A stretch of 61,422 nucleotides of DNA, filler included, from Sphacelaria rigidula (Eukaryota): assembly GCA_964200075.2 (NCBI GenBank). It is 4 parts of 4 records of this genome, joined end to end, with 100 filler letters (N's around TTAATTAATTAA, not from the genome) between each part and the next. Parts side by side here need not be neighbours in the genome. Positions count along the whole stretch, not along the records: positions 46,145 to 61,422 come from CAXNAA020001827.1; 3 more parts are not named here. One strand, written 5' to 3'. This document shows positions 2,585-57,500 of this stretch, one piece after another (within the stretch, counting starts at the first letter, position 1; each line of letters begins with the position of its first letter). The notes under the pieces are model-generated. The model searched no databases and was not told the origin of the DNA. It saw only the letters and a program-made list of their open reading frames with translations. Made by a program: the position numbers and the translations under genes.

Positions 2585-4324
2585 CGGCGCCGGTTGGTTC
2601 AGATCCACCCCCAGCCACGTACATTCACTGGCAATAAATATGCTGCTGATACTGCTGCTGCTGCTGCTTCTCGTGCGGACGGTCCACGGCACGTGACAGC
2701 CCCCCGCATACACAAAAGATCTAGGGGGCCTAGTTTGATATTTTGCTGGCGTCGCGTCAGCGGCCCGTAAATCCCCCCCCAGAGCGGAAAACACCTTATT
2801 TGAGTACATTTGGGTTATTTGCGAGTCAGCACCACGCTCAAACGCGGAAACCAAACTAGGCGACGTAGCTTGGGTGTGTGGGAAGCGCGCGTAAGAAACC
2901 GCAGTCCAATCCCCCGCTTCGGTGTCGAGTTGTAAGCGTTGCGCGATTGGCACTTTTGGGTTGAGGATCAGTAGCGTCTTTCGAGGTCGAAGATGGCAAC
3001 TTCAAAAAAATCGGTGCGCATACTTCTTTCCCTGCCGCAAGCAAGTTGTGAAGACATGCACTTTGGTTGCGTGCCCCCAGGCGCTGCTTTGTTCTGTGCG
3101 GCTGTGCACAAAGGGCAATTTCGCCTTTCAACGGCAAGTATCCTTTCAAGTGTCGAACTACAGAGGGAGAGTTGAAAGAAGAAAGACAAAGCTGGCGGCT
3201 GCTTCACGTCAGGGCTCCATCCAGTGCAGAAGCCAAGGCGTCGAGAGCGATTTTAGCACGAGTATGTGCGTTACATCTGCTGGCGACCGCGGTCATGTAT
3301 TTAGTAACTGTCTGTATATACTACAAATAGTATTAGAACGAGATGCAAACTACGCGATCTTTGACAAGCTTCGTTTTGAGCTGCATCTTTTTTCTTGCGG
3401 CAAGCAGTGTGTGACCGGTGGCATTTTAGTTTGTGGCATGCCACCAGGTACCGCTTCGTTCTGTACGACTGTGCACAAAGGGCAAATTCGCCTTCAACAG
3501 CGAGTACCCTTCATGTATTGAGTTGCAGAGGAGAAGCCAAGGCGCCAAGAGTGATTTTGATTTCAGATTGCGCACCATGTATGCTGAACATGTTGATCTG
3601 GACAGAGAGGATCAGACCGTGCCCAAGCGGCTGACAAGATGGGATTCCTCCCACTCATGCCATGACCCTGACCCGATGGAGCCCATGAGAAATTTACTCT
3701 CCAATCCCGCAGCCATAGCTGTGTGTAGGACATGCAGCGCGTAGCCTATCCGCACAGCGTGAACCTCTTGGTCGTCAACATCATCAGCATCGTTCTCATA
3801 GTTTTCGGATGCGCGACGATGCTGCTCATGATCTCCAAATTTCCGTACTTTCTCGTTCTAGCACTATGTCAGGCACGCCTTTCACTGCAGTTACGTTGGT
3901 GTGTAGCGGCCACAACTGCTGCTGTTCGTGCCCTTGTCTTGTTATCTGCGCTATGACGGTAAACGTGGGGTGGCAGCTCGGGGGCGTGTGCTTCCCGACT
4001 GGTACAGACAAAGGCAGAACACTCGCTAGTGCAACAAGATTGTCCATCTACTGGTATGGAGCGAGCTTTCCGGAGGAACAAAATCATCTCAACACCGACC
4101 ACTCCCAGGCTTGAATAAATGTACTAGAAATATAGTTCATTTTTTATGAGACAAATCGTCATTTGTAGGTGACGCGTGTATTTTCCGTTGATATGATTCA
4201 TGGATCACCGGCGACTTCTGACGCATGTAGCGTTCAGCTTGCACTTCCCATGAACATAGTACAGAAAATCTGCAATTCCTACCCATAACTGCACTGTCTA
4301 ATTTTTGGCCGAGAACGAAACTGT

Positions 4325-15282: not shown

Positions 15283-15382
15283 NNNNNNNNNNNNNNNNNN
15301 NNNNNNNNNNNNNNNNNNNNNNNNNNTTAATTAATTAANNNNNNNNNNNNNNNNNNNNNNNNNNNNNNNNNNNNNNNNNNNN
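15283..15382. other. Assembly gap (N44-TTAATTAATTAA-N44 linker)
   Basis: Artificial 100-bp spacer, identical at three places. Confidence 0.99.
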
Positions 15383-17649: not shown

Positions 17650-18590
17650 GTACTAGCCAGTTCCCGCAATCAGCCCTCCGGGCGCGTACGTCGTTTTGAA
17701 TCGACGGCCCATCATCGTACTACCCTTATCCACCACGCCACGCCGCGATCCGGAATACCTGCGCACTCGGACAGGCCTATGTTGTGTCGCGTTCTTGCCC
17801 GTCGAAATGTCGTGCCTGTCTCCACCGCCGCCGACCTTCACACTATCTTGCACCACACTCGGCGATGCATAAGATGCATGCTTGCGCAGCACAAAGAGCA
17901 ATCTCTCTTGCTCAACATCATTCGCACAATCCAAAAATGTGTCACATTGACAGTCCTTGATGTGTGCGGGCATGAGGTCAGAGACCGCTGGCTCCTCACA
18001 AACGTGCAAGCGTGCTTGACGCACGTTCGTTGCGTACACCTCACGACGGTAGTCCTCAATATTTCCGCAGAGACTGAGCAGATATTTCACTTGAGAACTT
18101 GCGACCGCAGTAGGGCAAATCCAGTAATCGTACACGGAAAGCGCGACGACCATCTATGACAACATATTGTTGCGGCGCACGAACAACATGGCCGTCTACC
18201 GCGACACACTCCTGCATCTCGTACGTTTCGGGCAGCAATACAGCACTCCACACCGCTTTTTTTTAAAAACGAAGTCGCCTTCCACTTACAGGAACAACAA
18301 CTCTCTCCTTACCAAGACGCGCTTGGCCACCAAACGACAATGGCCACAGCGCCTCTTCCTCACGCAGGTCTCACCACGTGTTTGAAGTCCTTACACTCCT
18401 CTTCCTGGCCGTACCTAGCTCCTGGCCGTACCTAGCTCCTGGCCGTACCTGGCCAAGCGTGGAACACGCAAACCTCGCTGGCTCCGCCAGGCAGTACGGT
18501 AATTGCGCCGCTTTTTTCTGGAACGCGCACGGGCTCGCCAGCTGTCGGTCAACCCCTCGCACCTCTCGCACGAGCGATACCACAGCCCAC
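17650..18590 (-). mobile_element. Ty3/gypsy-derived LTR family, copy A (leader + gag N-terminus, truncated)
   Basis: Translation LDLPYCGRKFSSE..VSDLMPAHI is homologous to ORF 28230-29033 and to the gag start near 53990. The leader is shared with 23290-23360 and 29150-29260. Confidence 0.75.
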
Positions 18591-18599
18591 CCTAGCACA

Positions 18600-19489
18600 A
18601 TGAGCAGAAACTACGAGATGCGTAGGCTTTTGTATGTGAACAAGTATAACGTGAGTATTCCAGAGGTTGACGGTAAAAAAATCGTACGCGAATACAGTGA
18701 TTTTCCACTGTGGTACATCTTTGATGGCTTGTCATGTGTTTGGGTAAGCGCATAGATGGTGTTTCGCATCTGCAAAACGGAGAATGTGGATGGTGTGCCC
18801 ATTTTTCTGGAAGGAGCACCGCATATTTGTTCTGAGCTGCATCAGTTGTAACTGAGTCAAACGGTGGGGGCATGGTTGTAGGCAAAGTACGGTATCAAGC
18901 TTTGAGTGCATGGTATGATTGGATGTTATGGTTTGAAATGGTATTTTCCTCGGCGCGTTTGCTTTGTGTGAGCATGCCACGACTGGAAATTGCTGTTGAC
19001 TGAATTACTGACTCACTGAATTCGATTGAGACGCTGTGTTCAAGTGTCGTTGCTCAGCGTTTTACGAATGATCATTTTCTTTGTGAACATGACATAGCAT
19101 GGTCATGTGTCACTAACAGGCAGACAAAGGTAGCATGAACGTGTTCGTCGGTGTCTACTGTTTGTCAAACTCGCTTTCTACTTCGAGTAGTGCGGAGTTT
19201 TGGGGGTGCTGTAGAGTAGTCCACCTCCAGTACACGTACGAGCAGGTTGATGATGATATACAAGTGGAGTAATCTGCTGTAGGCGTTTTCTATTGGTTGA
19301 CGGACTTGCGGGCCTGATTGGCAGACTATGTGGATTTGAACATCACATGCTTCACGCATGTGGTTACTTCCGATAACGAAGGCTGTGTGTTTATGAATAA
19401 CAACTGTCTTGAAGTCCCCAGGCCCTAGTGAGGGAGGAAGCCCTTGGAGCAATCTTGTGACTTTTTTCTGAGTCCAGGAGGGCTATATA
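18600..19489 (+). mobile_element. Same family, copy B (3' internal region + 3' LTR 19210-19489)
   Basis: Reverse complement of 50008-50850. PPT-like GGAGTTTTGGGGGTGC precedes TGTAGAG; the LTR ends GGCTATATA. Confidence 0.85.
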
Positions 19490-21076
19490 ATGCACAGTAT
19501 ATATTAAATGTTTTATTGCCGGAGCAAATGCGTGTCCAACATATATTGACATACGTTACTTCATGATCATGATACGAGCAATACATGCTGTTGCTTCAAT
19601 GTCTCCGAGGACATCTGAACACAATTTATGTCGAAAGAACAATATTTGCGCTGGTGCCAATACAAAGTATTGGTATCATATTGGAACATATTGTATTGCC
19701 CAAGGTATAAAAAACACAGCCCCGGTGACCGCAGGGGTACCAAAAGGCGCATATCGACCCGCGTTTTCTGTCATCGTTATTTTCAGCCAAGATATATCAA
19801 TTACATGATGTGAAAGGGATGGGAGGTCTCGCACCGGTGGCCAGATAGGTACCAGGAGGTGTATTTACCGGGTCGCCTCTTCTGTCATCATATTTTCCTA
19901 CCAGTATATACATATATGTCAGCGCATTCGAATAAGTTCTCCGTAGTGATGCACACCAAGGGAAGTTTCAAGCCGAAACTTGACCCTCATTACACGACGA
20001 GTAGGTCACCTGCTGAACCGGCATCAATATTCACTTGAAAAACGTATGTGTGATTCAGATGGACTACCCTCGTGGTCTAAGGGTTAGCTCTTAGCTCGTA
20101 AAAGATTCGCTATCAGGTGACATAAGCCTTGCAACTACTATTTGGAAGATAGGTTGGGATGTCACTTTCCACTTTCAAGGAGGCGGTAGATAGACGGAGG
20201 CTAGTTAACCCGGAAAAATCAAATGTGCACCCTGGGATAACGGCAAAAACACGTGCGGCTAGTCAGCGCCGCATGACCACGGCCCGGACCGTGGTTCTCA
20301 AACTATACAATCCGAGCCAGCACAACCAACGCAGAGTACAGTAGTAGCACAACAATAAAATGATGTCGCACTCTCTCTCATCTCTCACTACTCGTCGCAT
20401 GGTCGAGTCTGCTGGACTTCCCACTGCCAGCTCGAAAACGAAAGCTCTGTGTTAATTATTTCGAAGGTCAAATTCTCTGCTCGCTCATCTCCATCCTCCA
20501 TCCATGCATGACGATGTACACCGACAGGCTATGAAGGGAAAAGAGGTGCTGCTTTGTGTACCCAGAGAAGCACAGAGAATCCAAGGTAGAGAGAGTGGCG
20601 TGTTCTGGAATAAACAACAACATCACGGCGACTACATTATATTCTACTGTCTGTCAATTGCGCTAAGTCTATCGGTAACGCCATGGCGCCTACCGTGCCA
20701 TCTCCTCAGCAAAGTGAGCTATGGTCTACAGACAGTACTACACATGACCGTGTAGTACTGTACTGTATGAACACGGAAGCAAAAATAATACACAGCAGTA
20801 CAGTGCAGTCGTCTTATTCTCCGTCATCCCGCTGCGTTCATCCCTTGGTCGATCAGAATTGCCGAAGGATCAGATTCCACCAAAGCCTCGGGAAGCGTGA
20901 TGCCTCCCTGCCGCTAGCTGTAAAACTCGACCCTTATTTGACCACCAGGGTGGGCATTTTTGAAGTGAAAATTGTGCCGAATAAGAAACAGAGGGCCCAC
21001 CCTCGGTGTGATATGTTCTCGATGTTCTTTCAAACAACAGCGGAGGGATGCTGTAGGGCTTCCAGTAGGAGGCGAC

Positions 21077-22299: not shown

Positions 22300-25200
22300 T
22301 ATGCTAGAAGCCAACGTGTCGTGTAACCATTCAAAAGATGAATGTCGCGCCAGTCCAAAACAGATGTCACTCTCAAATGGATCTTCAACTCTCAATTTCA
22401 CGAAAACATTGTTGGTTGTCACATCGTGAATGTGAGCGAATTATGCGTGACAGTGTTCGTACCTTGAAGGTCATAATGCACGAAGGAAGACACGATGCGA
22501 ATGCTTGGGTGGGTTTGGTACCTGTCGTCTAGTGGCCATTGAACACCGATTTTCGGGAAAGCTATCATAGTTGTAGCTGCATCTATGATGCGAGGAGCGA
22601 CTGTTCGAGTGGAAATGCTGCTCTATGGTATGGAGGAGATTGTAGCCGAAGTGCTGCTGTTTCTCAGGAGGATGTCGACTCAAGGCAATATTGTCCCCAT
22701 GGTTAGGTACATGACTGCAGTAGAGAAAAAACATAGAAGGCGTGAATAGGCTGGTTGATGGATAACGAGTCTGATGAGAGTATGATCGGTGGACTCCATG
22801 ATGTGAGATGTTTGCACACGGTGTGCGCCGGTCACTTCTGGTTAACGAAGGCATGCTGTTCGTGTGACTGCTTGAGTTTCAAAGTCTCTGGAGCCCATGA
22901 CAGGGAGGAAGCCCACTGTGACCTTATTCTGATTTCAGACAAGTATATTACAAACGTTTATTCAGGACACTTTTCGCTTTTGGATTGGGGTTTCGAAGCC
23001 GCACCCCATAGTCACGTTGAAAAACAGGCGGGGAGAAAGCGGCGGAGAGATAGGTGCTGGTCATATAAACCTAGGCGACTGAAGGACAGAAGCCTAGCGG
23101 AAGGATGGCAGCGCGCAAGAGGATGGAAAGAGAACAGCCGTAAACGTTCTGAGGTGGTGCTAGAGTGTGCTTTGGAATCGGTTAACCAACAGCTCTTGCC
23201 CGAAGAGCCTGCCAAAAAATGCGGCACAATCACTACCTCAGACGGGAGAATTGTGCGAGAACCGACGAGGGCTAGTTCAAGGTTGGCCAGCCGCGTTAAA
23301 AAAAAGGAGTCTGAGGACTTCAAAAGCGTGGTGAGACCTGCGTCAGGAAGAGGCGCCATGACCTATACACCTATACAAGACCGCAGGAATCTCTGCTTAA
23401 AGGGGAGGTGGATTCCAAGTTGACGGATTTAGATCCGCGCGATAGACTTGTGTTCGATGACCAGCGTGTGGCTGAGGACACGCCTTGCATGCTCGAAGCT
23501 GCAGGGGGGTCTTATTCGCGTCATGCGGACGAGCGGGGAGCTTGGGACTCGCCATGCTCATGGCAAATCTGTGTGCGCCGACGATATGGCGAGAGATGGT
23601 TCAGATGATTCCCGGGGGTGTCTGCTTGAAGGAGAGCTGGATGCACAGTTGGCGGAGCCGCTTCCGGAGTAGCGTGGCGCTGTGGACAAGCAGTGCATGC
23701 TGGAAGCAGGTGGAGTGTGTGACCCGCGTGAAGCGGGTAGGCAGAGCGAGCTTCAGGCTTGTGATGCTATTAGCGGTCATAATTCCTACAGCGACGGTGA
23801 GCGTTGCGTAGTGTTGGGGTGGTCGTATGCACTGCTATTTACATGGACAGGTTTGTTGTACTCGGCGGCGTTGATCGAGGTGTCTATGCCGCTGCATGGT
23901 CAGGTGCTTGAGGAGGATGGTGTGATGCCATCAGTAGGTGTTTCTGTGCGGGACTGTATGGCTGTTCCCGTTTCGCCTCTCGTTTCAGTCTGAAGAAACG
24001 ACTGAAGCACGAGCTTTCGCTGATGCTCAAGCATCTGTGGGGGCTGAGGATTTATCGTATTGGTTTGGCGGTGCGGATATACCGTTCGGTGGGGTGCTCA
24101 GCGGCACTGTGGGGGTGCTACATGTAGCTGGACCGATGGTCCACGGAGCGAGTGTTCGAATGGAAACGCTGGGCTATGGTGGGCATGAATTTGTGGCGCG
24201 ACTGCTGCTGTTTCTCACGAGCGGGCTGGAGGACTACAAAGAAGGCATTACCTGGGGGGTTTGCTGTTGTGGTGAGCGCCGAGTTGGGTACTGATGTTGA
24301 GGAGTAAGTGCTGTAGTTAGTGATTGAGTGCTTGTTGAGAATGAGGAAACACATTATGACTGGTATTCGCGAATCGTTTTGAGAACGATTGCAGCTTGTT
24401 ATTGTGTGGTTTGTGGTTATGCTTGCGCATGAAACATGCTTGTTGAGCGAGTATGATCGTATCGTGTGTGCAAGGTAAAACTCTGGCGTACACGTGGATA
24501 TTTGGCATGTGTGTGTTGTGCTGCTCTGGTTGGCACGGACGATGCATTGTGTTCGCTGCGAGGAAGGTGGCATTGCATGTGCTGAGTGGAATATTGGCAT
24601 GCATGTGCGGATTTTCGTATGCTGAGTGGAAATTTGGTAGGCATGTGCGCATTTTTGCTCAAATGGTACTGATATGAATGGTATCTGGTGACGACCGAGG
24701 GTTGGGCAGTTTTCAATATAGTGCTGTATGCTAAATGAAGAGAAGCTCGTATAATCTTGTTTGCGCAGGAACACAGTCTAATCATATTTGTGCGGTTTGC
24801 ACGTACTGACTGCAGGATATATGGATTGCTGCTGTTGGCGTGAAAGTGAGCTGAAATATACGAAATGCGTAGGCCCGTCGCCGTTGTTGGATTGATATAC
24901 ATGGCTTGAAAAGCGGTTTGAGCCATGGCTTTCCTTTGGTTGTCTTTATGAAATGATGGCAAGTTGAAGCATTGAAGCTTTGATGGCGGGGAGGCATGCG
25001 ATGCATACGTATTTTACCGTGTTGCAGAAGCAAGAGGCCAGGTGCGTTTTAGACGTGTAGGGTGCATATTTCCTTCTAGCGGGGAGGATGATGTATCATT
25101 TGGCTGTTGTACTCCGTTGCGCAGGTGTTGAACGTACAAAGAGTGCATTTTGTATGTTGAGAAGAACCTTGTCTCGGATGAGAGAGGCGATGAGTCACGA

Positions 25201-25806
25201 ATGCTCTGGGATTTGACGTTCGCTAACGTTTCCGGTTTCGTGCCGATGAAGAGTCAAGAGACCTACCTGTCTGGGGCGAAGATTTGAGAATTTGGCGCTA
25301 GCTATCGCTTTGTAACTCGAAGTGGTGCAAGTAGCGTGATTGCATGTTCATGATGGACGATATTTTCTTGGGATCTCTTGCGAGTTGTTGGGAAGTGCGG
25401 GGCAAGCTTGTATGGAGCTGTTCTTGCAAGCAGCGGAAGGGGTTGCTAAGTTTCGCGGAAAACGACAGTACTATCAGGCCCCAATGATGTCTGAGTTTGT
25501 CAAGCTCTGATGTAAGTACTTCTTGGTAGTAGGGACCTTTGGGGGTGCTGTAGACTCTAGCCATTATTGTTACCTAAGGTCAGGAACATTACAGGTGGAG
25601 TTGCGAGTCTGATTGTCGGACTCTGTGATGGTGACCTCCATGACGAGTACGCTTGGTTTTGCTACTCTGGTGGAGAGAGGTTGTGGTCGTGTTCTCCTGA
25701 ACTATGCTGAAGGTTAATATATGAATAACTAAAGCCGCTGAAGTCCATGTGCCCGTGATGGGAGGAGTCCACAGGGCAATTTGATCTTGAGTGACAGAAG
25801 TCTACA
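22300..25806 (+). mobile_element. Same gypsy-derived LTR family, copy C (integrase relic, degenerate LTR to about 22950, decayed internal region, 3' LTR 25549-25806)
   Basis: 22370-22700 is homologous to integrase 51170-51625. The 3' LTR has terminal IR TGTAGACT..AGTCTACA preceded by TTTGGGGGTGC. Confidence 0.8.
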
Positions 25807-27628
25807 GACCCGCAACTCCACCTACACAATGTCCCTGACCTTGGGTAATAATGGTGACTAGAGTCGGTAGCACCCGCAAAGCTCTCTACTACCAAGAAGT
25901 AGCTACATCAGAGCTTGACAAACTCAGACATCATTGGTGCCTGATAATACCATTGTTGTCCGCAAAGATTAGCAACCTCTTCCGCTGCTTTCGACAACAG
26001 CTCCATACAAGCTTGCGCCACTTCCGGACAACTCGCAAGACATCCCAAGAAAATATCGTCCATCATGAACATGCAATCACGCAACTTGCACCACTTCGAG
26101 GTAAATAGCGATAGCTAGCGCCATATACTCAAATCTTCGCCCAAAACAAGTCTCTTGACTCTTCATCGGCACGAAACCGGGAATGTCAGCGAAAGTCAAA
26201 TTCCAGAGATTATACGAACTTCTCTTCATTTAGCATACAGCACTATATTGAAAACTGCCCAACCCTCGGTCGTCACCAGATACCATTCATATCAGTACCA
26301 TTTGAGCAAAAATGTGCACATGCCTACCAAATTTCCACTCAGCATACGAAAATCCGCACATACATACCAATATTCCACTCAGCACATGCAATGCCACCTT
26401 CCTCGCAGCAAACACAATGCATCGTCCGTGCCAACCAGAGCAGCACAACACACACATGCCAAATATTCACGTGTACGCCAGAGTTTTACCTTGCACACAC
26501 GATACGGTCATACTCGCTCAACAAGCATGTTTCATGCGCAAGCATGACCACAAACCACACAATAACAAGCTGCAATCGTTCTCAAAACGATTCGCGAATA
26601 CTAGTCATAATGTGTTTCCTCATTCTCAACAAGCACTCAGCCACCTCAGCACTTACTCCTCAACACCAGCACCCAACTCGGCGCTCACCACAACAGCAAA
26701 AAGCTCAGGTAATGCCTTCTTTGTAGTCCTCCAGCCCGCTCGTGAGAAACAGCAGCACTGGAACCACGACCCTATGCACAGCGTAGAGCAACGTTCCTAC
26801 ACGAACACTCGTTCCCCGCGCCATGAGCCCAGCTACACCTCGCACCCTCGTGGAGCCGCTCAGCTCGCCACTACACGGTATATCCGCACCGCCGAATCAA
26901 TGCGACAAGCCACCCGCCTCCACAGATACTTGGGCAGTACTGAACATCTGTGCTTCAGTAAGTTTTACAGAGAAAACGAGAGGCGAAACGGGAACAGCTA
27001 CACAATCCCGAACAGCAACACCTCCTGATGGCACATTATTCTCCTCAAACATCCCGCAGTGCAACAGTGGAGACACTTCCGCCATCGTCGCCAAATACGC
27101 CAAACCTGTCCATGTAAGCAGCAGTGTACACAACCGCCCCAACACCACGCGACGCTCGTCGTCGCCGTCAGAATTGTGATCGTTGATAGCATCACGAGCT
27201 TGCAGCTCGTTCTGCGTACCCGCTTCACGTGGGTCACACGCCCCTGTTGTTTTTCGATCATGCAAGGCGTGTCCACAGCTACGCACTGCACCGGTGGCAG
27301 TTCCGCAAACCCGGCATCCACCTGTCCTTCAAGCAGACACCCCTGCGAATCATCTGAACGATCTCCCGCCATGTCACTGGCGCAGATAGATTTCCCATGA
27401 GTACGGCAAGCTCCTTGCTCATCCTGCTTGTTCGCAATACGCGAATAATACCCCCCTGCAGCTTCGAGCATGCAAGGAGTATCTCCAGCTACGCGCTGGT
27501 CCGGCGGCAACAAGCAACTGGGACCTCCACCCATCAGTATTTGCGCATTGACCCATGTAGGCCTCGCCCTCTCAACATCGCCAACAGCAGCAGCAGTATC
27601 ATCCATACTCGCTACAGCCGCAACCTGT

Positions 27629-28106
27629 GACGCTGACTGGTCAGTGGTCTAGTTGGTTATCTCCTAAACCGTCACAAAAGTTAGTCGCTGGTTCGATTTC
27701 CGTCGGACGCACTTTCTCTGGAAAAAAAAGAGGAGAGAAAACCTCTGTCAAAAAACTGGCCCCAAGGAGAGAAAACCTCTGTAAAAAATTGTCCCGAAGA
27801 AAAAGGGTGCGGTGTCGCCTGGTGGCTATGTTTGGAGTGTACTGCAAAGGACCCCAGTGCACACACTCTGGAATGAGTGGAGGAGACGAGTAACTCAAGG
27901 GTACGGTGAGAGTGACAACATTAGAGGTCCTAATGGCAGTCGATAAAGCGCTGGCGAGGGGTGTCGCCCTCCTCGGACTGATAGTGACGGGGATCAAACC
28001 CCCAGGGCTAACTTTTGTGACGGTTTAAGAAACAACCAACCAGACTAACTGACCAGTCAGCGCTGACTGGTCGGTAGTCTAGTTGGTTGTCTTTTAAACC
28101 GTCACA
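27629..28106. mobile_element. Insertion with inverted tRNA-like heads and terminal 90-bp palindrome
   Basis: About 56-bp IR 27631-27686 vs 28007-28062. A-box-like TGGTCTAGTTGG and B-box-like GGTTCGATT / GGTTTGATCC. Palindrome 28016-28106. CTGT on both flanks. Confidence 0.7.
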
Positions 28107-28229: not shown

Positions 28230-29033
28230 TTATTCAGCACCGACTACTGTACTCTCACTATTCTTGCTACCCAGTGCGTCTCTTCGGACAGACACATGCG
28301 TCGTCATCTTCGCGCCCCTCAAAGTGGCACCGCGTTGTTGCTTCAGTCGCGGACGAGCAGTTTCTACTACTGCACGCTCAGCCGGTGCTCTATCGTGCCT
28401 GTCCCCTCGGGCAGCCACGTGCTTGTCGGCTTTCACAGTGCAAGCAGCTACCGTGTATCGTTCTTTCAGACGCGGACCACGTACTGCACGTTCGGCGGGT
28501 GCACGGTCGTGCCTGTCCCCTCGGGCAGACACATTCTTCTCGCCCTCCACAGTGCATGCGAGAGCGCTTTCATGCCTGTCCCCTCTGACAGACATGCGCT
28601 GTGTGACAAGTGCACCCTTTACAGTGCCATGCGCCCCACCGGACGACGCATGCTTGTGCAACGCGAAAAGCAAGTGCTCGTTCTCAACATCATAATCATG
28701 CTTCAAGAAGGTGTCACACAGACATATCGCAACATGTTTCGGCATGAGGTCAGAAACTGCTGCCACCTCAAAGAGCTTTGTCCACTGCACGTTCACCTGG
28801 TCTATATCTCGCACATATTGTTCGTATTTCCGTGAAAACTCGGCCGATTTCTCGCTCGAAAACTTGCGGCCATAGTACGGCGGCAACTCCAGCACTAGTA
28901 CAGGAACAACACGACCATCGACGATGACATACTGCTGCGTCTCAACATGTTGAACAGCTGAACAGGCTTTGCCGCTACCTCCACGCTGCTCATCAAACGC
29001 CGAGCCGCCACGACATGTGCACATAGGGAACAA
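28230..29033 (-). pseudogene. gag-like ORF of copy D with repeated RGDRH(D/E) peptides
   Basis: 267-aa ORF. LELPPYYGRKFSSEKSAEFSRKYEQY..VSDLMPKH aligns by eye with LEAPEYGRHFSEIASRRFYQKYVEY..VTELVPKH of copy E gag. Confidence 0.65.
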
Positions 29034-30664
29034 TCACAAAGCAGCCCCTCAACAGCTCAACGGTTGTTCCAGAAAAAACAGCGTTGTTTCTCAATCACAG
29101 AAACAACAACTTCCCATACACCAAGACGCGCTTGGTCACGTAACGACAATGGTCACAGCGCCTCTTCCTCACGCAGGTCTCGCCACGTGTTTGAAGTCTT
29201 TAGACTCCTCTTCCTGACCGTACCTGGCCAAGCGTGGAACAGGCAACCCTCACTGGCTCCACCAGGCAGTATTTGCGCCGCTTTTTTTTGCTTACGGGCT
29301 CGCCAGCTGTCGATCAACCCCCCGCACCTCACGCACGAGCGACACCACCGCCCGCCCTAGCACTGCCTCAGAACCTCCTCGGCTCTACTTCTCCAACTCC
29401 TCGCGACGTCAACACGCCTTGAGCTGGTCTGGTTTGCTGCAAACTGATCAGGCCTGCAGACTTCCCTATCTTGATGTGTCAGCTACCGCCAGTCAGCGGA
29501 CCTACTGCCAGTCAGCGGAAAGAATGAACGTTCATTATAGACCGCTGTCACTCAAGATCAGACCGCCATGTGGACTCCTCTTGTCACGGGCATATGGGCT
29601 TCAGCAGCTTTAGTTATTCATGTTTTGACCCTTAGCATAGTACAGGAGAACGGGACCATAGCCTCTCTCTCTCTCCACCAAAGTAGCAAAACCAAGCCTA
29701 CTCGTCATGGAGGTCACCCATCACAGAGCCCGGTAATCAGACCCGCAACTCCACCTACACAATGTCCCTATCCTTAGATAACAATTTGGTGGCTATAATG
29801 TACAACCCCCAAAGCTCGCTTACCACTCACAAGTTGTCAACCCAGAGCTCGATAAACTCAGACATCATTGTTGCCGAAGTTCAACATCAATTTGCACATA
29901 GAAAGGCAATCCCTACCGCAGTGTATGGTGACAGCCATACAAGCTTGTTCAATCTCCGAACAACTCGCAAGAGATCCAAAACGTCCATCATGAACATGCA
30001 ATTACGCTACTTGCATCGCTCCGAGTCACGCAGCGAGAGCTGACGCCCAATTCTCAAACGCATGCCCCAAGCAAGTCTCCTGACGCCAAACCGGCGAAGA
30101 AATTTTAAACGTCAGCGTACTTCAGATTCTCAAGCCATCGTGACAATTCATCTCTCGCATTCGATACCGTTCAACATAAAACATACTCTTTGGGACGTTC
30201 AACACCTGCGCAACGGAGTGCAACAGCCAAGCAATATACCTGAAACTAGAATCAAATAGGTAACCAACAACACGTCTAGAGCGCAGCTGTCACCTTGCTT
30301 CTTCAACTCCGTGAAAACGTATGCATCATACACCTCTTCTTCGTGAAAGCTTCGAAGCTTCATTGCGCCACTCAACTCATGAGCATACTGAAAAAAAGCC
30401 ATGACTTGAACCGCTTTTCAAGCCATGTATACCAATCCAACAGTGGCAAACAGGTCTCGACCTCCGCCATCATTGATCGACCGTAGTGATATCGTTCTCA
30501 AAGTCGTTTTACCGAGTACACCTCAGGAAGCACCCAAATATAATATCCCAACTTGGATTCAGGACGGTCATATCCCCTCGGACGACTAACCGCGGTGTAA
30601 AATGCAGCTCACCCGCACCGCTTCCTTAGACAAACGGACACTCCATCCATATGATCCTTCCAGA

Positions 30665-30764
30665 NNNNNNNNNNNNNNNNNNNNNNNNNNNNNNNNNNNN
30701 NNNNNNNNTTAATTAATTAANNNNNNNNNNNNNNNNNNNNNNNNNNNNNNNNNNNNNNNNNNNN
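30665..30764. other. Assembly gap linker
   Basis: N44-TTAATTAATTAA-N44. Confidence 0.99.
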
Positions 30765-46044: not shown

Positions 46045-46144
46045 NNNNNNNNNNNNNNNNNNNNNNNNNNNNNNNNNNNNNNNNNNNNTTAATTAATTAA
46101 NNNNNNNNNNNNNNNNNNNNNNNNNNNNNNNNNNNNNNNNNNNN
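46045..46144. other. Assembly gap linker
   Basis: N44-TTAATTAATTAA-N44. Confidence 0.99.
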
Positions 46145-49600: not shown

Positions 49601-50007
49601 ACACATTGGGGCGCTGAACTCGACAAAATTTGGCGTTCCCCGCTCAATACCAGGTAGTGAACTACTGTTCACGCAATGGGTCCCTGCCGCTCAGTCAATA
49701 ATTACTGAAAACGAAGTTAACATGGCTTTTCTACCATGACTATCCATAGTTTCTGTGAAAAAGGTAAATCCCTTCCCATTTGTAGTCAAAATATTCACCA
49801 CTGGTGCCGACGATGCCCTTGCATGTAAAACCTGTGCGTTTGTAGGTTTCGAAGATGTACTTGTGTCCAGGATACCTTTGTTGACTTGCTGATGTGGATG
49901 CGTCACATTGCTATTGTGCTCGACAGTGCCATTATCACTCCTTACGCCTTCATTCCTATTTTGACTTCTACACTTCATATTATCATGATTGGCTATTCTG
50001 TGTAACG
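46680..50007 (-). mobile_element. Decayed Ty1/copia internal region interrupted by MITEs
   Basis: VIID*AAGTH (protease-like), then TAGGHLLQEGRG..SAIVVPNLGIHIFS (copia post-protease motif), an integrase-like remnant near 48600 and an RNase H-like tail near 46700. The order fits copia. Confidence 0.55.
48779..49110. mobile_element. MITE with CACAC..GGCCATTTGG TIRs and CCTCC(A/G)GAGG repeats
   Basis: CACACGCAGCCATTTGG vs CCAAATGGCCGGGTGTG. Related ends at about 47466 and 47971. Confidence 0.75.
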
Positions 50008-53000
50008 TATAGAGCCCTCCTGGACCCAGAACAAGGTCACAAGATTGCTCCAAAGGCTTCCTCCCTCACTAGGGCCTGGAGACTTCAAGACAGTTGTTAT
50101 TCATAAACACACAGCCTTCGTTATCGGAAGTAACCACATGCGTGAAGCAGATGATGTTCAAATCCACATAGTCTGCCGATCAGCAGATTATTCCACTTGA
50201 ATATTATCATGAACCTGCACGTACGTGTACTGGAGGTGGACTACTCTACAGCACCCCCAAAACTCCTCACTACTCGAAGTAGAAAGCGAGTTTGACAAAC
50301 AGTAGACACCGACAAACACGTTCATGCTACCTTTGTCTGCCTGTTGGTGACACATGGCCATGCTGTGTCATGTTCACAAAGAAAATGATCTTTTGCAAAA
50401 CGCTGAACAACGACACTTTAACACAGCGTTTCGATCGAACTTAGTGAAGTCAATAATTTATTCAACGGAAATTTCCAGTCGTGGCATGCTCACACAAAGC
50501 AAACGCGCCGAGGAAAATACCATTTCAAACCGTAGCACTCAATCATACCATGCACTCAAAGCTTGATACCGTACTTTGCCTACAACCGTGCCCGCACCGT
50601 TTGACTCAGTTCCAGCTGATGCAGCACAGAACAAATATGCGGTGCTCCTTCCAGAAAAATGGGCACATCATCCACATTCTCCGTTTTGCAGATGCGAAGC
50701 ACCATCTATGCGCTTATCCAAACACATGATAAGCCATCAAAGATGTACCACAGTAAAAGATCACTGTATTCGCGTACGATTTCTTTTATCGTCAACCTCT
50801 GGAAATACTCACGTTATACTTGTTCACATACAAGCCTACGCATCTCGTAGTTTCCGCTCATTTTCACGCCAGCAGCAGCAATCACCACTCCTACAGGCAG
50901 TTTCTGCAAAACGCACAAAGATGATTCCAATTTTTGTGCGAAAAATGATATACGAGCTTTATTCCATTCAGCACACAGCAGTGTATTGGAAACTGCATCA
51001 CTCTGACTCTTCATCAGACACCATGCACATCAGTCACACCTGCATGCTCATATTTCACTCAGCAGCTTCTTTGCAGAAACCACCATGTATCATGTGTGCC
51101 AACCAGCACAACACTACAGACAAGTCCAGGAACCACATCACCACCACCTACAACCGTCCACAAAACGATTCAGGTATACAAGTCACAATGTGCTTCCTCA
51201 TTCTCAACAAGCAATTCCACTAGTACTTGCTTCTTAACATCACCCAACACGGCGCTCACCGCAACATCGAGCACCTCAGGTAATGCCTGCCTTGTAACTC
51301 TCCTGCGCTCCTGTTGAGAAACAGCAGTTCTCCAGCTACAATCTCGTCCACACCGTAGAGTAGCATCTCCACTCCAACAGTCGCTCCTCGCATCATAGAT
51401 GCAGCCACAGCTCTCACAGCTGTCCCGAAAACCAGTGTGCAATACCCACTGCACGGCAGGTGCCAAACCCACCCAGGCGTTGGCATCGCGTCTTTCTCTT
51501 TGCATTGTGACCTTCAAGGTACGAACAATGTCACGCACCATTTGCTCACATTCACGATGTGACAACTGCGAGTTGGCCACCACGAATCTGCGATCCATCA
51601 GCACCTTCTTGAGCACTCTCACCACACGATTCTCATATTGCGATAACGTATCGCTGACCCATCCCTCCTACGGCCCCAGCGCTTTGCACCACGTCAACAG
51701 ATGCTTCACCGTCGTTGCCGCCGTACAAGACTCCGCGGGCTCCAACCGCACGAAGTCGCCCGGGTCATCCATCCTTACCAATATGTACTTGAACCGATCT
51801 CCTTTGTCCAAGCCATTATCTCCCAGCGGACTACCCTCGCCAACACTGAGAAAATTGAAATCGAAAACCTTCCCTGGGCGAACACCGTGCATCACCTCCT
51901 TGTGGTGACGAGATACTCCCTTCCCCGCCTTGTATGCATTCATCCAGCCGAAACAGGACTTCTCGGGCGTTGCAATCGCCGCTCTCGCCCACTCTATCTG
52001 CAAACTGCAGTACACGAGCCCGAGCGCCACCAATGTTGCAATGCAGCGTGCCAACCACGCCATCCTGACCGGAAAGTACGCCCTAGGCCGAGCCTTTGCC
52101 TCCACAGCAGCAGGTTTGAGTTTCACCTTCTAGGGCTCGACACGATCAAGCGGACAACCATGCAGCACTCGCCTAAAAATGCTCGCTCTGTTCCGCACAG
52201 GCTCACGAATTTGGCTCACGTCGCTATCCGACATGCCGTAACCCGCGGCCGCTTGTACTGCCTCCTCTGGCGCAACATCAAGCTCAGCAAGCTCTTGTTC
52301 CGGGGATATGCTCATCGCCGGACTTCTCGACAACAACTGCTCGACTGAGGAATAAACGGGCTCCGCCCGACCTCCTGATTGCTGTAAAGCGTCAACCGTG
52401 GTACTGACACGCCGACAGTCCGTAAAATCAGGCGTGTTTACACCTCGCACCGAAGTGTTTCTTGCACGTGCACAGGCACCTAAGCTACTGTACACGTCAA
52501 GGCCCAGCGCCTCCAGCGTAGGGCTCCCCATGATGATCACATCATCTGTACCCTGCATGACCGCATATGAACATGGGTCCAGCACAACCGGACCCCAGCT
52601 GGTGTGTAAAGCGTTGCGGACAGGGCAAGCTTTCTGCTTCACGCTCTCAACATTGCCATCTGCCAATTTCACCAACTGTTCACCAGCCATCGATCTCACC
52701 ACTTGGACATCTGGAACCATGGCTTGCAATTTCGCCGCCACACCAGCTGACATGGTCGTAAGTCCAGATCCTGAATCTAAAATAGCCGTGACCGGACAAA
52801 CACCCTTTGCCCCTGCACTCGGGACAGACAAGTCGGCAAGACACCACCTTTCCTTGTGATCTACTTGCAGACCCTCAGATTGAAAACCTGACACCTCACC
52901 CGCTTTGAGCGATCTCCATGCTGGCACCGCCGCAGAGATCGAACCCGGGAACGAGTGCGATGAGATGGTTTGCTGCACGCCACCAGTAGAAACCACCGGT

Positions 53001-54528
53001 TCTGATGGCAACGTCGCCCCCCCACTGGGAGCACTTTGTCCATCGGCTGAAAAGGCAGCCCTTGTAGGAGCGGGACTCGTACCCCCTCCGCGAGGCACCT
53101 GTGCAGGGCCCTGCGACAGCTGCTGTTGTTGCTGCTGCTTGTCGCCAGCCTTCGTCTGCCCACCGTTGTGTAGCACCAGCCTGGCCTTGCTGCTTGCAAT
53201 CCTTCCGGAAATGGCCCTTGTTTCCACATATGAAACATCCTGCATAATTTGGGCCTGATTTGCGGGTTTTCCCGAAACTGGCAGTCCCATTTCCACTGCT
53301 CGCCGTTTTCCCACCATTTGGTTGGCGCTTGCTTCCGGAAGTCCCGCTACCATTCCTTTGTTTCAGCTGCGGCTGCTGACGGCGCTGTTTATCCGCCGCT
53401 TCCACCGTCTTCCATGCCTCCGCTGCTTCCCGAGCCGTGTTAAACACAAGCCCAGGGTCCTCCTTCCACCCCCCTCTCATGTTCAACATGTTGAGGACTT
53501 TAATTTTGAATTCGGGGTGGGGGTCAGTCCATTCAACATTTCCCGAGTTATGATTTGAGCGGGTCCTGGTTGGAAATCTGCATCATCGCGGAACGCACGC
53601 TCAGCGCTATTATTCTCCGCAAAAAATTCCTCCAGGGCACCCCACTGCCCTTCTACTCTTCCCATTGCAGTTTGCTCGTTGCGGGCCGCCAACGCTTTCC
53701 GCACACCAGCGGCAGCAACTGAAGGATCGATCTCTTCACCCTGCCAACATTTCGCGTGTCGGCCTAGTGCCTCCTTGAAATCACCTTCGTCATGCACGGA
53801 TCCGTCAAAACTCGCGCGTCACAAACACGCACGGAAGTGCTTCGGCACCAGTTCAGTAACAGTCAGTAAGACGGCCTGTATGCTACGTCCTTTGTTGTTC
53901 ATTTTGATCGCCTGTTCATACTCGACGTATTTCTGATAAAAACGTCGGGACGCAATTTCGCTAAAATGCCGTCCGTACTCTGGGGCTTCCAGCGATCATG
54001 CAGGCATAAGCTTCGTAAACTTAAACTTCACCTCTTCGCCTGCATCGCCATCGCCCACTCTCTTGCGCGTTGCCCTAGCTGCACGCAACAGTTCGAGCCA
54101 ACCTAGCCGTCTCGCCGTTGCCAGCGAGCTCCCTCACGTTACAGTGTGCACACTACTGTGATCAAATTTCGATATAATTTCTCCGCAGCTGTCCACAGCT
54201 GAAAAACCTCTTCCAGAAACCAGCGGGTTCCTCTTAGTAAACGTTTATTATAGAGCCCTCCTGGACTCAGAACAAGGTCACAAGATTGCTCCAAGGGCTG
54301 CCTCCCTCACTAGGGCCTGGAGACTTCAAGACAGTTGTTATTCATAAACACACAGCCTTCGTTATCGGATGTAACCATATGCGTAAAGCATGTGATGTTC
54401 AAATCCACATAGTCTGCCGATCAGACCTAAAAGTCCGTCAAACAATAGAAAACGCCTACAGCAGATTATTCCACTTGTATATCATCATGAACCTGCACGT
54501 ACGTGTACTGGAGGTGGACTAGTCTACA
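50008..54528 (-). mobile_element. Gypsy-derived LTR family, copy E: two LTRs, gag, protease, RT/RNase H deleted, partial integrase
   Basis: LTRs 54249-54528 and 50008-50250. CCHC knuckle CFICGNKGHFRKDC. Protease AILDSGSG. Integrase HG.RPG.VF.FNFL..YILV..DD. Multiple frameshifts. Confidence 0.92.
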
Positions 54529-57500
54529 GAAATCTTTAAGCAACGAAAATCGAGTTTTTTCTCCACGTTAAGTCATGAGCGACAAGGAAGGCGAACTCAA
54601 TGCTATAAAAGCACTCGGCCGTAGTAGCTGAAAAGAAGAAGGTACACCCCAGACAACGAGGGCAAAACCCACTCTGCTGCCCGATCCTCCCACACCTCAA
54701 ACAAGGTAAGCGAAATATGCTACCGAAAAGCTCAAGTGCGCTTGAAGACGAAGGAGCACACAATGCTGCTGCGGGCTAGCGAGCTCAAGAGACAAACATA
54801 AAAAAGCTTCGGCGTGCAAGCGAAAATAAAGAGGCAAAAGGGAAGTCAAACCAGGGGTATAACGTCTACGAGCGTGGTACCAAAGTCAACCTCCGAAAGA
54901 TCAATCACATGCGGCGAGCACATGGTGGCTGAGGAAAGCAAAGGAATCAGCAACTCCAAGACTGCAAATGGTCCAGCGCCAGTCATACAAATCAAGAGCC
55001 AAAATACGAAAAGCTCCAGTAGCCGAAGATGAAGGTGCGCCAGGCAAGGTCCATTCGTGGTCAGACGTTGTGCGCTGAGGAAGCTCCGGTTGCAGGCTGT
55101 TGAAGCAGTTGGTGGACGGCACTGGTGTGTCCTGAGTTGTGGGAGGAGGGGAAATATATCTAAAAAACAGCGACAGAGGAAGCGAAGAAAAGAAAAAGGA
55201 AAAATGTCCACGAGGGGGAGGCAAGAGGTCTGTGTAAGCTCAAAGCGGTGCGTTGACATCGTGTGTGCGATCGATGTTATGTTGAATTCCGCGGCGGAGG
55301 CCCTTGGACTTGGGTCGCTGAAGACACCGAGATCCTTTCGGTGCGAATGGACTTGTGGTGTAAAGCTGTGGCCGGAGTTTGAGGTGTACGGGTCCGAGGT
55401 CATCGATGAAGCGCATGATGCATACTCGTCTCTGGGCAATGAAGGTCAAGGACGTAAATGGGCGTTGAGAAACGCCGGATAGGGTACACACCGGGTTCAT
55501 CGGGTTCGGTCAGTCGGCAAGCGGGGCTGAATTCCACAGCCGTTGGAGAAAGGGGCAAGCGGGAGAGAAGGTCAGTATTCCCGTTGGTTTTGCCAGGGCG
55601 GTGTTTGACAGTACACTGATAAGCTGTCAGGAACTCCAACCAGTGTTGCACACGCGGGTTATGTTCGCCAACTTTGGCGAGTTGTTCAAGTGCTCCGTCA
55701 CCCGTGTAGATTTGGAAAGGCACATGGAACAAATATCGTCGAAGGCGCTTTATGGCCCAAGTGATGACTCCGCCTTTCAGCTCCAGTGGACTCCAGTTGG
55801 CCTCGTTTGGAAGGGTGGCGCGACTGATATAGAGGATGGGTCAAATAGAGCCATGGAGTTGGGGCTGAGTCAGGACCGCGCCGAACCCATCGGTGCTCGC
55901 GTCTGTATGTAGTTGAAAGAGGCGAGAGTCGTCTTGTACGGTATTCCAGTCTGGGAAACAAAGAATCGGTTTTCCGGTGAGCATTTTCAGCAAGTCACGC
56001 ACGATAGCTTCCATGTCTTTGGTGAAGGCAAGCGCGGCGCCTTTTTTAGGCAAGTCCGTGATGGGGTAAATCTGTTTGGACAGGTTAGGCAAAAATTTGC
56101 GATAGTAGGATAGTTCACCCAATGAAGAGCGGAGCTGAGTAATGTTCGTGACACTTTCTACGATAGCCCCTTCCCAAAACCAGCTAAGAGTGTCACGAAA
56201 CAAATGGCCATACAGCGCCTGATGTTCGGGTTCAGGCTGCATTAAGCGCCTCATATTTGCGACGTTGGCTAGAACGAACCCAAGCGTGGGAATCCCCAGC
56301 TTCTCGTTGTGGTCGGCTTTTCCCATTCCGATTTACGTGAAGATTTGCCTTCGAAAGCCATGCCCTTTTTGGGGGGGGCTATCGTAGAAAGTGTCCCGTG
56401 GGCATCGGCAATTCAGTCGTTGCCCTGGCTTTGTTGGTTTCAGGGTGTAGACCCGCCGGTGAAATTGAGTGTCCAAGAAAAACCAGTTCAGTTGCGCCAA
56501 GGCGAGCTTTGGATGGAGACAGTTTCGAATCGTGCTTCCGCAGGCGAGACAGAAACTCTCGTAAGGTACTCACATGCCCAAAGGGGAGGCATCGAATGCG
56601 ATAGAATCGCCCAAGTACATGACGACGCGTTCGAGATTCTCTGTAACGCGTTGCACTGAGCGTTGAAAACAACCTGGTGCAGTGGTGGCACCTTGTGGCA
56701 TACGGAGCCATTCGTAGAGCCCAGAAGATGTACAGAACGCTGTCAGAGGGACTGTATCAGGGTGGATGGTATTCTGGAAAAATCCGGAAGCGAGGTCAAA
56801 GGTACTGAATATTTTTTCTTCGCCTAGAGAGTCGAAGACTTCATCTATGCGAGTGATGGGAAGTTGTCCCACTACAGTGACGCGGTTTAGCCGTTGCTAA
56901 TTCACGGTGATCTCTATGTTTCCATCCTTTTTAGGAACTACCACTAGCGATGAGGCCCACGGAGAAGAGGAGTGTTGGATTAATCCGGCACCTAAGTACG
57001 CATCTAAAATGGCGTTAACGTTTTTGGTAAGGATGGGGTTCGTCCGATACGGTCGAGAAGAGATTGGCGAAACACCAGGTTGAAGGGTGATTTCAAAGAG
57101 CAGCGTTTTGCAATGCCCCAGATCCGCTTTGGATCAAGAAAATCTGTCTTGGTACTCCAATAAAACATCGCTCAATTCTTTGATTACAGCGGGTTCCCAA
57201 CCGGGTCCATGTAGGTCAAAGACCATGTCACGTAAATGGGATGGAAGTTGATCCCACATGTGCAAGAAACTTGTCCGAGATTCGGGCGATAGGCGTTGCA
57301 GCACTTCAGCAGGAGAGTCGGACGTTGACGATGCAGGGTCCACGGTGTGGATACGTGATGGAGACGAAGAGCTTACGTCGAAGTAAGGCTCATCGACGCA
57401 AGTGACAGAACCTTCTGGCGGACGCGCCGAGTTGGGCGTCGAGGGTTCAGTAGCACATGTCTCAAGTGGAATGTGCATGAGAGGAGCAGCAGCAAAATCC

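Follow-up and report, generated by a model that had tools for sequence, protein, structure and literature searches.

The stretch of DNA analyzed here (the window) has 61,422 nucleotides (nt), filler included, and comes from the brown alga Sphacelaria rigidula (assembly GCA_964200075.2). It contains diverged copies of a family of retroelements with long terminal repeats (LTRs). In three of these copies, designated E, D and C, a palindrome centred on AACGTT is found directly after the 5' LTR, at the position of the primer-binding site. The window is made up of four pieces of 15,282 nt, with joints at 15283–15382, 30665–30764 and 46045–46144, each consisting of 44 N, TTAATTAATTAA and another 44 N. 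Copies C, D and E' are found in piece 2 and copy E in piece 4; these are different pieces, so the copies need not be neighbours in the genome.

Element E and the palindrome at its LTR border

Element E extends from 54528 to 50008 on the minus strand. It is 4.5 kb long and has direct repeats at both ends. Its features are given below, together with those of a second element of the same type. U5 is the unique 5' region at the end of the LTR, and RT stands for reverse transcriptase.

54249..54528, minus strand: 5' LTR of E, 280 bp, TGTAGAC...CTCTATA, a direct repeat with 50008–50250; contigs break at 54249 and at 54528/54529
54235..54250, minus strand: palindrome at the position of the primer-binding site, TAATAAACGTTTACTA in the window copy; it overlaps the LTR end by its first two bases
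54220..54265, minus strand: wider imperfect inverted repeat across the border between U5 and leader, CCAG..GGG..CTCT(A), palindrome, AGAG..CCC..CTGG, as read from the sequence
54080..54234, minus strand: leader of E up to the start of gag, which has a mutated start codon; placed by a tblastn alignment of protein P0001 that begins with residue 2 at 54073
51950..54079, minus strand: decayed gag with a CCHC knuckle, protease and first part of the RT region, placed by Pfam, frame breaks and the P0001 alignment
50251..50268, minus strand: polypurine-like tract GAGGAGTTTTGGGGGTGC, which precedes the 3' LTR and is also found in the contig consensus behind 54529
50008..50250, minus strand: 3' LTR of E, 243 bp, followed by CGTTACACAG, without palindrome
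18599..19489, plus strand: E', the 3' part of a second E-type element, with a 3' LTR at 19210–19489 followed by ATGCACAG

The 5' LTR of E ends in CTCTATA at 54249, and ATAAACGTTTAC stands directly after it. No TGG is found within 25 nt of the LTR end in E, C or D; the first one lies at least 26 nt downstream. An earlier sequence-only reading of this DNA had claimed that a conserved self-complementary sequence replaces a TGG-starting site in the three copies, and we find all three palindromes in place. It had also claimed that 3' LTRs are not followed by the palindrome. This agrees with the sequences CGTTACACAG and ATGCACAG, which follow the 3' LTRs of E and E', and with the contig breaks at 54249.

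As a family check, contigs from four public runs were placed on positions 53950–54650 at 80% likeness. X1, X2 and X4 are DNA runs; the RNA nature of X6 is a guess. Variant readings from contigs are among the variants listed. The E-type family is very abundant: the contigs placed on the junction number 1083 in X1, 1194 in X2, 1087 in X4 and 31 in X6. The family has multiplied carrying the palindrome structure, with about 1100 contigs per DNA run, which speaks for the priming role proposed below.

The window copy of E has a C at 54237, where the family majority has a T. On the plus strand, A at this position accounts for 14788 of 14965 of the depth in X1 (58 contigs), 17084 of 17579 in X2 (43 contigs), 3262 of 3290 in X4 (48 contigs) and 53.5 of 73.3 in X6 (2 contigs). 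T at 54237 is thus nearly universal, and the majority form, ATAAACGTTTAT, is a perfect 12-mer palindrome. Together with the last two bases of the LTR and the next two of the leader, it becomes a perfect 16-mer. When CTCT(A) and AGAG are added, the majority form has 12 pairs and one bulge over 25 nt. Among the variants listed, just one more falls within the 16-mer, a change from A to G at 54236, with at most 4% of the depth in the DNA runs.

The two 3' LTRs in the window and the contig breaks define the border of the LTR, and the palindrome starts at this border or two bases before it. Contigs which depart from the reference exactly at 54249 number 24 in X1, 30 in X2 and 25 in X4. They are the ends of 3' or solo LTRs, without palindrome. 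The breaks occur at many loci, and this fixes the LTR end. Contigs with the polypurine-like tract depart from the reference behind 54529. In a subfamily (8 contigs in X2), AAACGTTTA and the block GGAACCCGCTGGTTTCTGG are retained but separated by TTCAGG, as in copy C.

The two LTRs of E are 95–96% identical in gap-free blocks, and a 37-bp deletion is private to the 3' copy. Because of this difference, E may be a recombinant. The LTR termini, TGTAGAC/G...CTCTATA, form a 7-bp inverted terminal repeat with one mismatch, and the presence of two LTRs is as expected for Ty3/gypsy elements. No target-site duplication is found around E, whose flanks are ATTTC and CGTTA. We have also considered a 3' LTR longer by 7 nt, which would end in CACA. 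This candidate was rejected: TGTAGAG/CTCTATA is a better inverted terminal repeat, and a 3' LTR of the D type ends in TCTACA at the homologous place.

The coding region of E is decayed. Pfam finds zf-CCHC (4.6e-5) and Asp_protease_2 (0.002), below or near the curated cut-offs, and frame breaks interrupt gag and protease. RT, RNase H and integrase are mostly deleted. P0001, a protein of 880 amino acids from a public assembly, aligns to E by tblastn from residue 2 at 54073, over 731 columns with 61% identity; in a separate protein search its identity is 71%. The best named protein relative is P0003, from the brown alga Sphacelaria rigidula, with 68% identity. Relatives at 37–43% identity carry domains which E lacks: P0002 has RVT_1, RT_RNaseH_2 and Chromo, P0004 has RVT_1 and Chromo, and P0005 has rve. 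Among the relatives examined, no single clean protein shows the order of RT before integrase. Since E has only gag and protease and its relatives have RT, RNase H and Chromo domains, E is, judging from its coding content, a non-autonomous deletion derivative of a chromodomain-bearing family of Ty3/gypsy type in a brown alga. The sequence-only reading had also proposed diverged members of one LTR family and a non-autonomous E, which agrees with these results. Chromodomain gypsy lineages of Ectocarpus have been placed outside the chromoviruses proper (PMC12477816).

Two further palindromic stretches are found in the leader of E, CAGCTGTGGACAGCTG and AGTGTGCACACT, at 54176–54191 and 54143–54154. 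The second one is private to this copy, as most contigs have A at 54145. Another observation concerns the sequence a few bases beyond the 3' LTR ends, where CACAG is found in both cases: in CGTTACACAG (E, 49998–50007, minus strand) and in ATGCACAG (E', 19490–19497, plus strand). The consensus beyond 54249, in the 24, 30 and 25 contigs of the three runs, is GCTCACAG, with a low overall agreement of 0.36–0.38. The shared CACAG could reflect a target preference or an adjacent element. CACAG is the terminal motif of the EnSpm transposons of Ectocarpus (supplement of PMC12477816); no inverted partner of it has been found in the window.

The palindrome in the diverged copies C and D

Copies C and D are related to E, with considerable divergence. 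Their features are the following.

22780..22949, plus strand: LTR remnant of copy C, 62% identical to positions 104–281 of the E LTR, with E-like internal sequence before it
22950..22961, plus strand: site of copy C, ACAAACGTTTAT, in which only the core AAACGTTT is perfect; leader and a broken start of gag, ATGGCAGCGCGC, come next
29536..30442, minus strand: true 5' LTR of copy D, about 907 bp, TGTTGG...GGTCTATA, whose end aligns with U5 of C and E
29523..29536, minus strand: palindrome of copy D, AATGAACGTTCATT, a perfect 14-mer; when it is aligned with E, its initial A is the final base of the LTR
28647..29522, minus strand: leader and gag-like coding region of D; residues 32–108 of P0001 match at 28880–28647 with an E-value of 4e-9
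24880..25806, plus strand: 3' LTR of a D-type element, ending in TCTACA with no palindrome after it, joined to an inverted and truncated LTR copy

Chance controls, here and below, are shuffled sequences. None of 200 shuffles reaches the score of the LTR alignment between C and E, and ATGGCAGCGCGC in C matches the MAAR start of P0001. For copy D, the sequence-only reading was right in placing a perfect 14-mer after a 5' LTR, but the strand and the LTR were wrong: what it took for the LTR is leader and gag. D is an element of the minus strand, with its LTR at 30442..29536, the palindrome at 29536..29523, and then leader and gag. The repeat on the LTR side of D (29538–30447) has a 73% copy at 24880–25804, which follows E-like 3' internal sequence. 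On the other side, 28645–29363 has a 66% copy at 17873–18598.

The palindromes of D and E differ by one mirrored change, from A-T to G-C. With LTR ends set independently, the best local alignment of the two copies, over frames of 350 nt, is AGGGCTCTATAATAAACGTT against AGCGGTCTATAATGAACGTT, which takes in exactly the end of the LTR plus the palindrome, with no difference in offset. Its score of 14 is reached by a fraction of 0.010 of 200 shuffles. The remaining LTR sequence of E and D shows no similarity by BLAST. In an alignment of the three sites (A1), 19 of the 24 cells of the eight inner pairs are standard base pairs, as opposed to 29–46% with a slid partner. In one pair both sides change, the three copies reading A-U, A-U and G-C. 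A perfect 16-mer at the LTR border and a mirrored 14-mer in an otherwise unalignable lineage are, from these comparisons, unlikely to be an accident.

No tRNA-type site has been detected by other means. A canonical primer site further downstream was considered and rejected. The TGG stretches at +26 to +34 diverge among E, C and D like ordinary sequence; besides, reverse transcription would carry any sequence between U5 and a true site into the 3' LTR, where none is found. Pairing with a tRNA half or fragment is hard to reconcile with a gapless palindrome of 14–16 nt, which would have to match a contiguous part of the cloverleaf. Rfam, at E-values up to 5, gives nothing relevant around the sites of E or D. 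A metagenome scan with the 16-nt LTR end gave 61 loci, none of them related; 3 of the 61 match the LTR and leader of E by BLAST, over 19–20 nt which cover the search pattern itself. Viral contigs searched with a 20-nt pattern and with P0001 gave no match. As for a positive control, none of the other direct-repeat pairs in the window clearly marks an LTR element that has a TGG site.

Two observations on the surroundings of these copies may be added. E-like internal sequence (22415–22672, 84% identical to 2964–3221 of E) is found before the LTR of C, and a purine-rich stretch before that of D. Tandem elements sharing LTRs, or deletions, seem to be common in this region.

How DNA copying may start in this family

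The palindrome is conserved, complementary to itself and located exactly at the LTR border, with no tRNA-type site beside it. This family probably starts DNA copying in an unusual way. We suggest, with a probability of about 0.4, that minus-strand DNA synthesis in this gypsy-type family starts in cis at the palindrome, without use of a tRNA 3' end; the element's own RNA would be the primer, and the same site would link two RNA copies.

In the strong-stop model, the base after U5 is the place where the 3' end of the primer sits. The LTR repeat stops at CTCTATA and therefore, under this model, the primer must pair with the palindrome. In two diverged lineages, which differ from each other in a mirrored way, the site is self-complementary, and the simplest primer would therefore be the RNA of the element itself. 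The palindrome would pair with the same site of a second, co-packaged RNA, or of the same molecule. A partner RNA would form 12 perfect pairs, or 18 with flanks and one bulge, about the length of the duplex between a tRNA and its primer site. The pairing RNA would be cut after ...GTTTAT and extended into U5. Plus-strand synthesis would copy the primer, so that the right arm would be rewritten from the left arm in every cycle. The palindrome would therefore stay perfect, and single changes would become mirrored pairs. Two genomic RNAs would also be joined by this pairing. The most specific form of this proposal, a self-templating and self-repairing primer site at which two co-packaged RNAs pair and one of them is cut and primes the other, with the right arm rewritten each cycle, seems to us somewhat unlikely. 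Between two Tf1 RNAs, too, priming can take place. In Tf1 and Tf2 an RNA self-primer is cleaved by the element's own RT (PMC5341516).

Several points weigh against this proposal. The primer, the cut and the RNA dimer are what we infer, the dimer from predicted folding. Only one pair covaries among the three sequences, a result equalled by 155 of 500 shuffles; with so few sequences this control has no power. The mirrored A-T to G-C change between E and D, which the sequence-only reading called compensatory, stands as a single event of covariation. The window copy of E has a mismatch in the palindrome, and the perfect core of copy C is only 8 nt. Among the variants listed, the palindrome is not visibly better conserved in the E family than nearby LTR bases. 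Monomer folds are no better than those of shuffles (z of -0.58, -0.49 and +0.17), and the hairpin formed by the site alone is weak, with -1.7 kcal/mol for the window copy and -5.5 for the majority form. There is no autonomous member among the DNA copies behind the palindrome. The comparison with tRNAs covered the window, in which ARAGORN finds none. Finally, a role in dimer linkage alone would explain the same sequence facts, except for what acts as primer.

This last alternative, a signal for dimer linkage or packaging only, with some other RNA as primer, is in our opinion unlikely. It agrees with the position of the site, in the 5' leader of an element encoding gag, and with the palindromic nature of retroviral dimer sites (PMC5445492). 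The predicted homodimer is strong: the gain over two monomers is about -14.5 to -14.7 kcal/mol for E, for its majority form and for D. In the monomer fold of E, the palindrome is unpaired, between two small hairpins. The CTCT/AGAG part of the wider repeat is used in the predicted dimer fold and unused in the minimum-energy fold of the E monomer. However, the palindrome abuts U5 and leaves no room for a separate primer site, so any primer must still pair with the palindrome itself. Between E and D the site differs at two positions, so that no single host RNA of fixed sequence can be a perfect match to both. Retroviruses have their dimer site in addition to the primer site (PMC5445492).

Self-priming as in Tf1 would require that the transcript folds back and pairs with the site by its first bases, which lie within the LTR, G.U pairs being tolerated. 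It appears improbable here, even if related gypsy-type groups self-prime (PMC6317226) and the E LTR has an ATATACA motif about 20–25 nt upstream of position 70. The sequence-only reading had seen no LTR complement beyond 6 nt. This is essentially right for Watson-Crick pairs, since the best runs between site and own LTR are 6 in E, 7 in D and 5 in C, all at chance level. It does not hold when G.U pairs are allowed: the runs are then 10 bp in E (LTR 70–79), 11 bp in D (459–469) and 9 bp in C. These runs are above average in each copy's own LTR, the fractions of shuffles being 0.046, 0.066 and 0.10, respectively. The corresponding duplex energies are no better than those of shuffles (0.26, 0.18 and 0.11), the partners in E and C lie at non-homologous places although the two LTRs align, and the palindromic nature of the site is left unexplained.

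The palindrome might also have no function, as an accident inherited from a founder, with a mirrored change between E and D due to chance. In favour of this, AACGTT is at chance level in the window (18 sites, 19 expected). There is a single covarying pair, and copy C is degenerate: four unrelated AACGTT sites match its perfect arm of 4. By our estimate, a stretch of 10 identical bases is not rare in an alignment of about 200 nt with 62% identity. On the other hand, only three of the 18 sites, those of C, D and E, are found at a junction between LTR and leader. D has the longest perfect arm of the 18, and E is tied for second. Perfect palindromes of at least 14 nt number 8 in the window and 3.6 in shuffles, and those of at least 16 nt number 3 and 0.86. 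With three of that size in 61 kb, chance is unlikely to have put a perfect 16-mer right on the border of the LTR. The palindrome block is the only part that still aligns between the LTR ends of E and D, and there is a parallel in the GalEa elements of fungi. We consider an accident hardly probable.

ACGT-core sites bind dimeric factors, and the palindrome, perfect and with ACGT at its centre immediately after the LTR, might act as double-stranded DNA, driving or silencing the element with priming unrelated to it, but this is very improbable, as it leaves unexplained the exact abutment with the end of U5, the missing primer site and the wider complementarity into U5.

The proposal that the palindrome serves as the start site, with the element's own RNA as primer, is not without precedent, because a palindrome at the same place has been published for the GalEa elements (PMC5445492). 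These are copia elements of fungi which have a Conserved Hairpin Site and no tRNA site, with a mechanism left unexplained. Their 9-bp box is palindromic together with the last A of the 5' LTR, and its variants CTGATCAGT and CTAATTAGT differ at mirrored positions (PMC5445492). This is the closest precedent we have found: there is no tRNA site, and the palindrome stands directly after the 5' LTR and includes its last base. In our case, the majority 16-mer of E includes the last TA of the LTR and the 14-mer of D the last A. The mirrored variants are ATAAACGTTTAT and ATGAACGTTCAT here, and CTGATCAGT and CTAATTAGT in GalEa. No U5 complement of the Tf1 kind has been found in either system.

There are also differences. 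GalEa belongs to the copia superfamily and is found in ascomycetes, whereas our element is of gypsy type and is found in a brown alga, a stramenopile; its relatives carry gypsy-type RVT_1, RT_RNaseH_2 and Chromo domains, which places it outside the GalEa clade (Ty1/copia). The palindrome has 12–16 nt here and 10 nt in GalEa, and the two sites have no sequence similarity. GalEa has a second box, CHSeq2, 12–41 bp downstream, which pairs with the first (PMC5445492). No such box is found within 100 nt downstream of the site in E, D or C, where the best runs are no better than those of shuffles.

Other known systems share some of these features. Elements with self-priming of the Tf1/Tf2 type (Tf1/sushi group, Tcn1 clade) resemble our family in being of gypsy type, with a chromodomain (here, in the relatives) and no tRNA site (PMC5341516, PMC6317226). 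Their own RNA, cut by their own RT, is the primer, as we propose here (PMC5341516). In Tf1, however, the partner of the site is the beginning of the transcript, within the LTR. Our family shows no complement of this kind above chance, and its site pairs with itself. The Tcn1 and TAR lineages of plants are also predicted to self-prime (PMC6317226). Skipper, from Dictyostelium, is another chromodomain element of gypsy type which has lost the TGG site and has no LTR complement, and a novel kind of self-priming has been suggested for it (PMC5006619). What follows its left LTR is a polypyrimidine stretch and no palindrome (PMC5006619). The dimer initiation or linkage palindromes of retroviruses are, as predicted here, self-complementary sequences of the 5' leader able to pair two RNAs (PMC5445492).

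The palindrome of this family occupies the place of the primer site itself, abutting U5. This is not the case in retroviruses, where the tRNA has a primer site of its own and the dimer palindrome is located downstream of it, usually within the loop of a hairpin. To our knowledge, priming in LTR retroelements without a tRNA site has been solved only for Tf1 and Tf2. The hairpin site of GalEa and the polypyrimidine site of Skipper have been unexplained since their description (PMC5445492, PMC5006619). In the literature on brown-algal LTR retrotransposons we have found no description of the site, the Ectocarpus FASTA libraries and a PDF supplement, in which a consensus of the family might be present, being outside this search. 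The main text of the Ectocarpus transposable element survey (PMC12477816) does not contain 'PBS', 'primer binding' or 'palindrom', and four of its supplements contain one unrelated 'palindrom'.

A palindrome at the U5 border with mirrored changes, in a second and unrelated lineage, suggests a common logic and not a fungal oddity. Being very abundant and recently multiplied, the family offers thousands of copies in which the predicted mirrored changes may be looked for. Should the primer be the RNA of the element itself, dimerisation of the RNAs and priming would be one and the same event. If the site is self-templating, this family and GalEa would represent a third general way of starting reverse transcription, beside tRNA priming and priming from the 5' end as in Tf1. 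Such priming would then have arisen in both copia-type and gypsy-type lineages.

Other features of the window

The region between copies C and D contains a large foldback at 23459–27501, whose arms are 84–86% alike, with a loop at 25612–25804. In it, the 3' LTR of the D-type element ends exactly at TCTACA (25806) and abuts an inverted copy of that LTR without its last 200 nt or so. The foldback looks like a product of aberrant reverse transcription or self-integration.

A stretch at 27625–27705 has the tRNA-like boxes TAGTTGGTTA and GGTTCGATTTCC; neither ARAGORN nor Rfam calls a tRNA there. Two inverted copies of the 5' part of this stretch form a hairpin at 28016–28106, with a perfect palindrome of 22 nt at 28051–28072. 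The motif CGCTGACTGG recurs twice in the leader of D, at about 29480–29517. In piece 4, 56621–57097 (minus strand) has a weak RT-like match to residues 713–871 of P0002, with 22% identity, and is probably another decayed retroelement.

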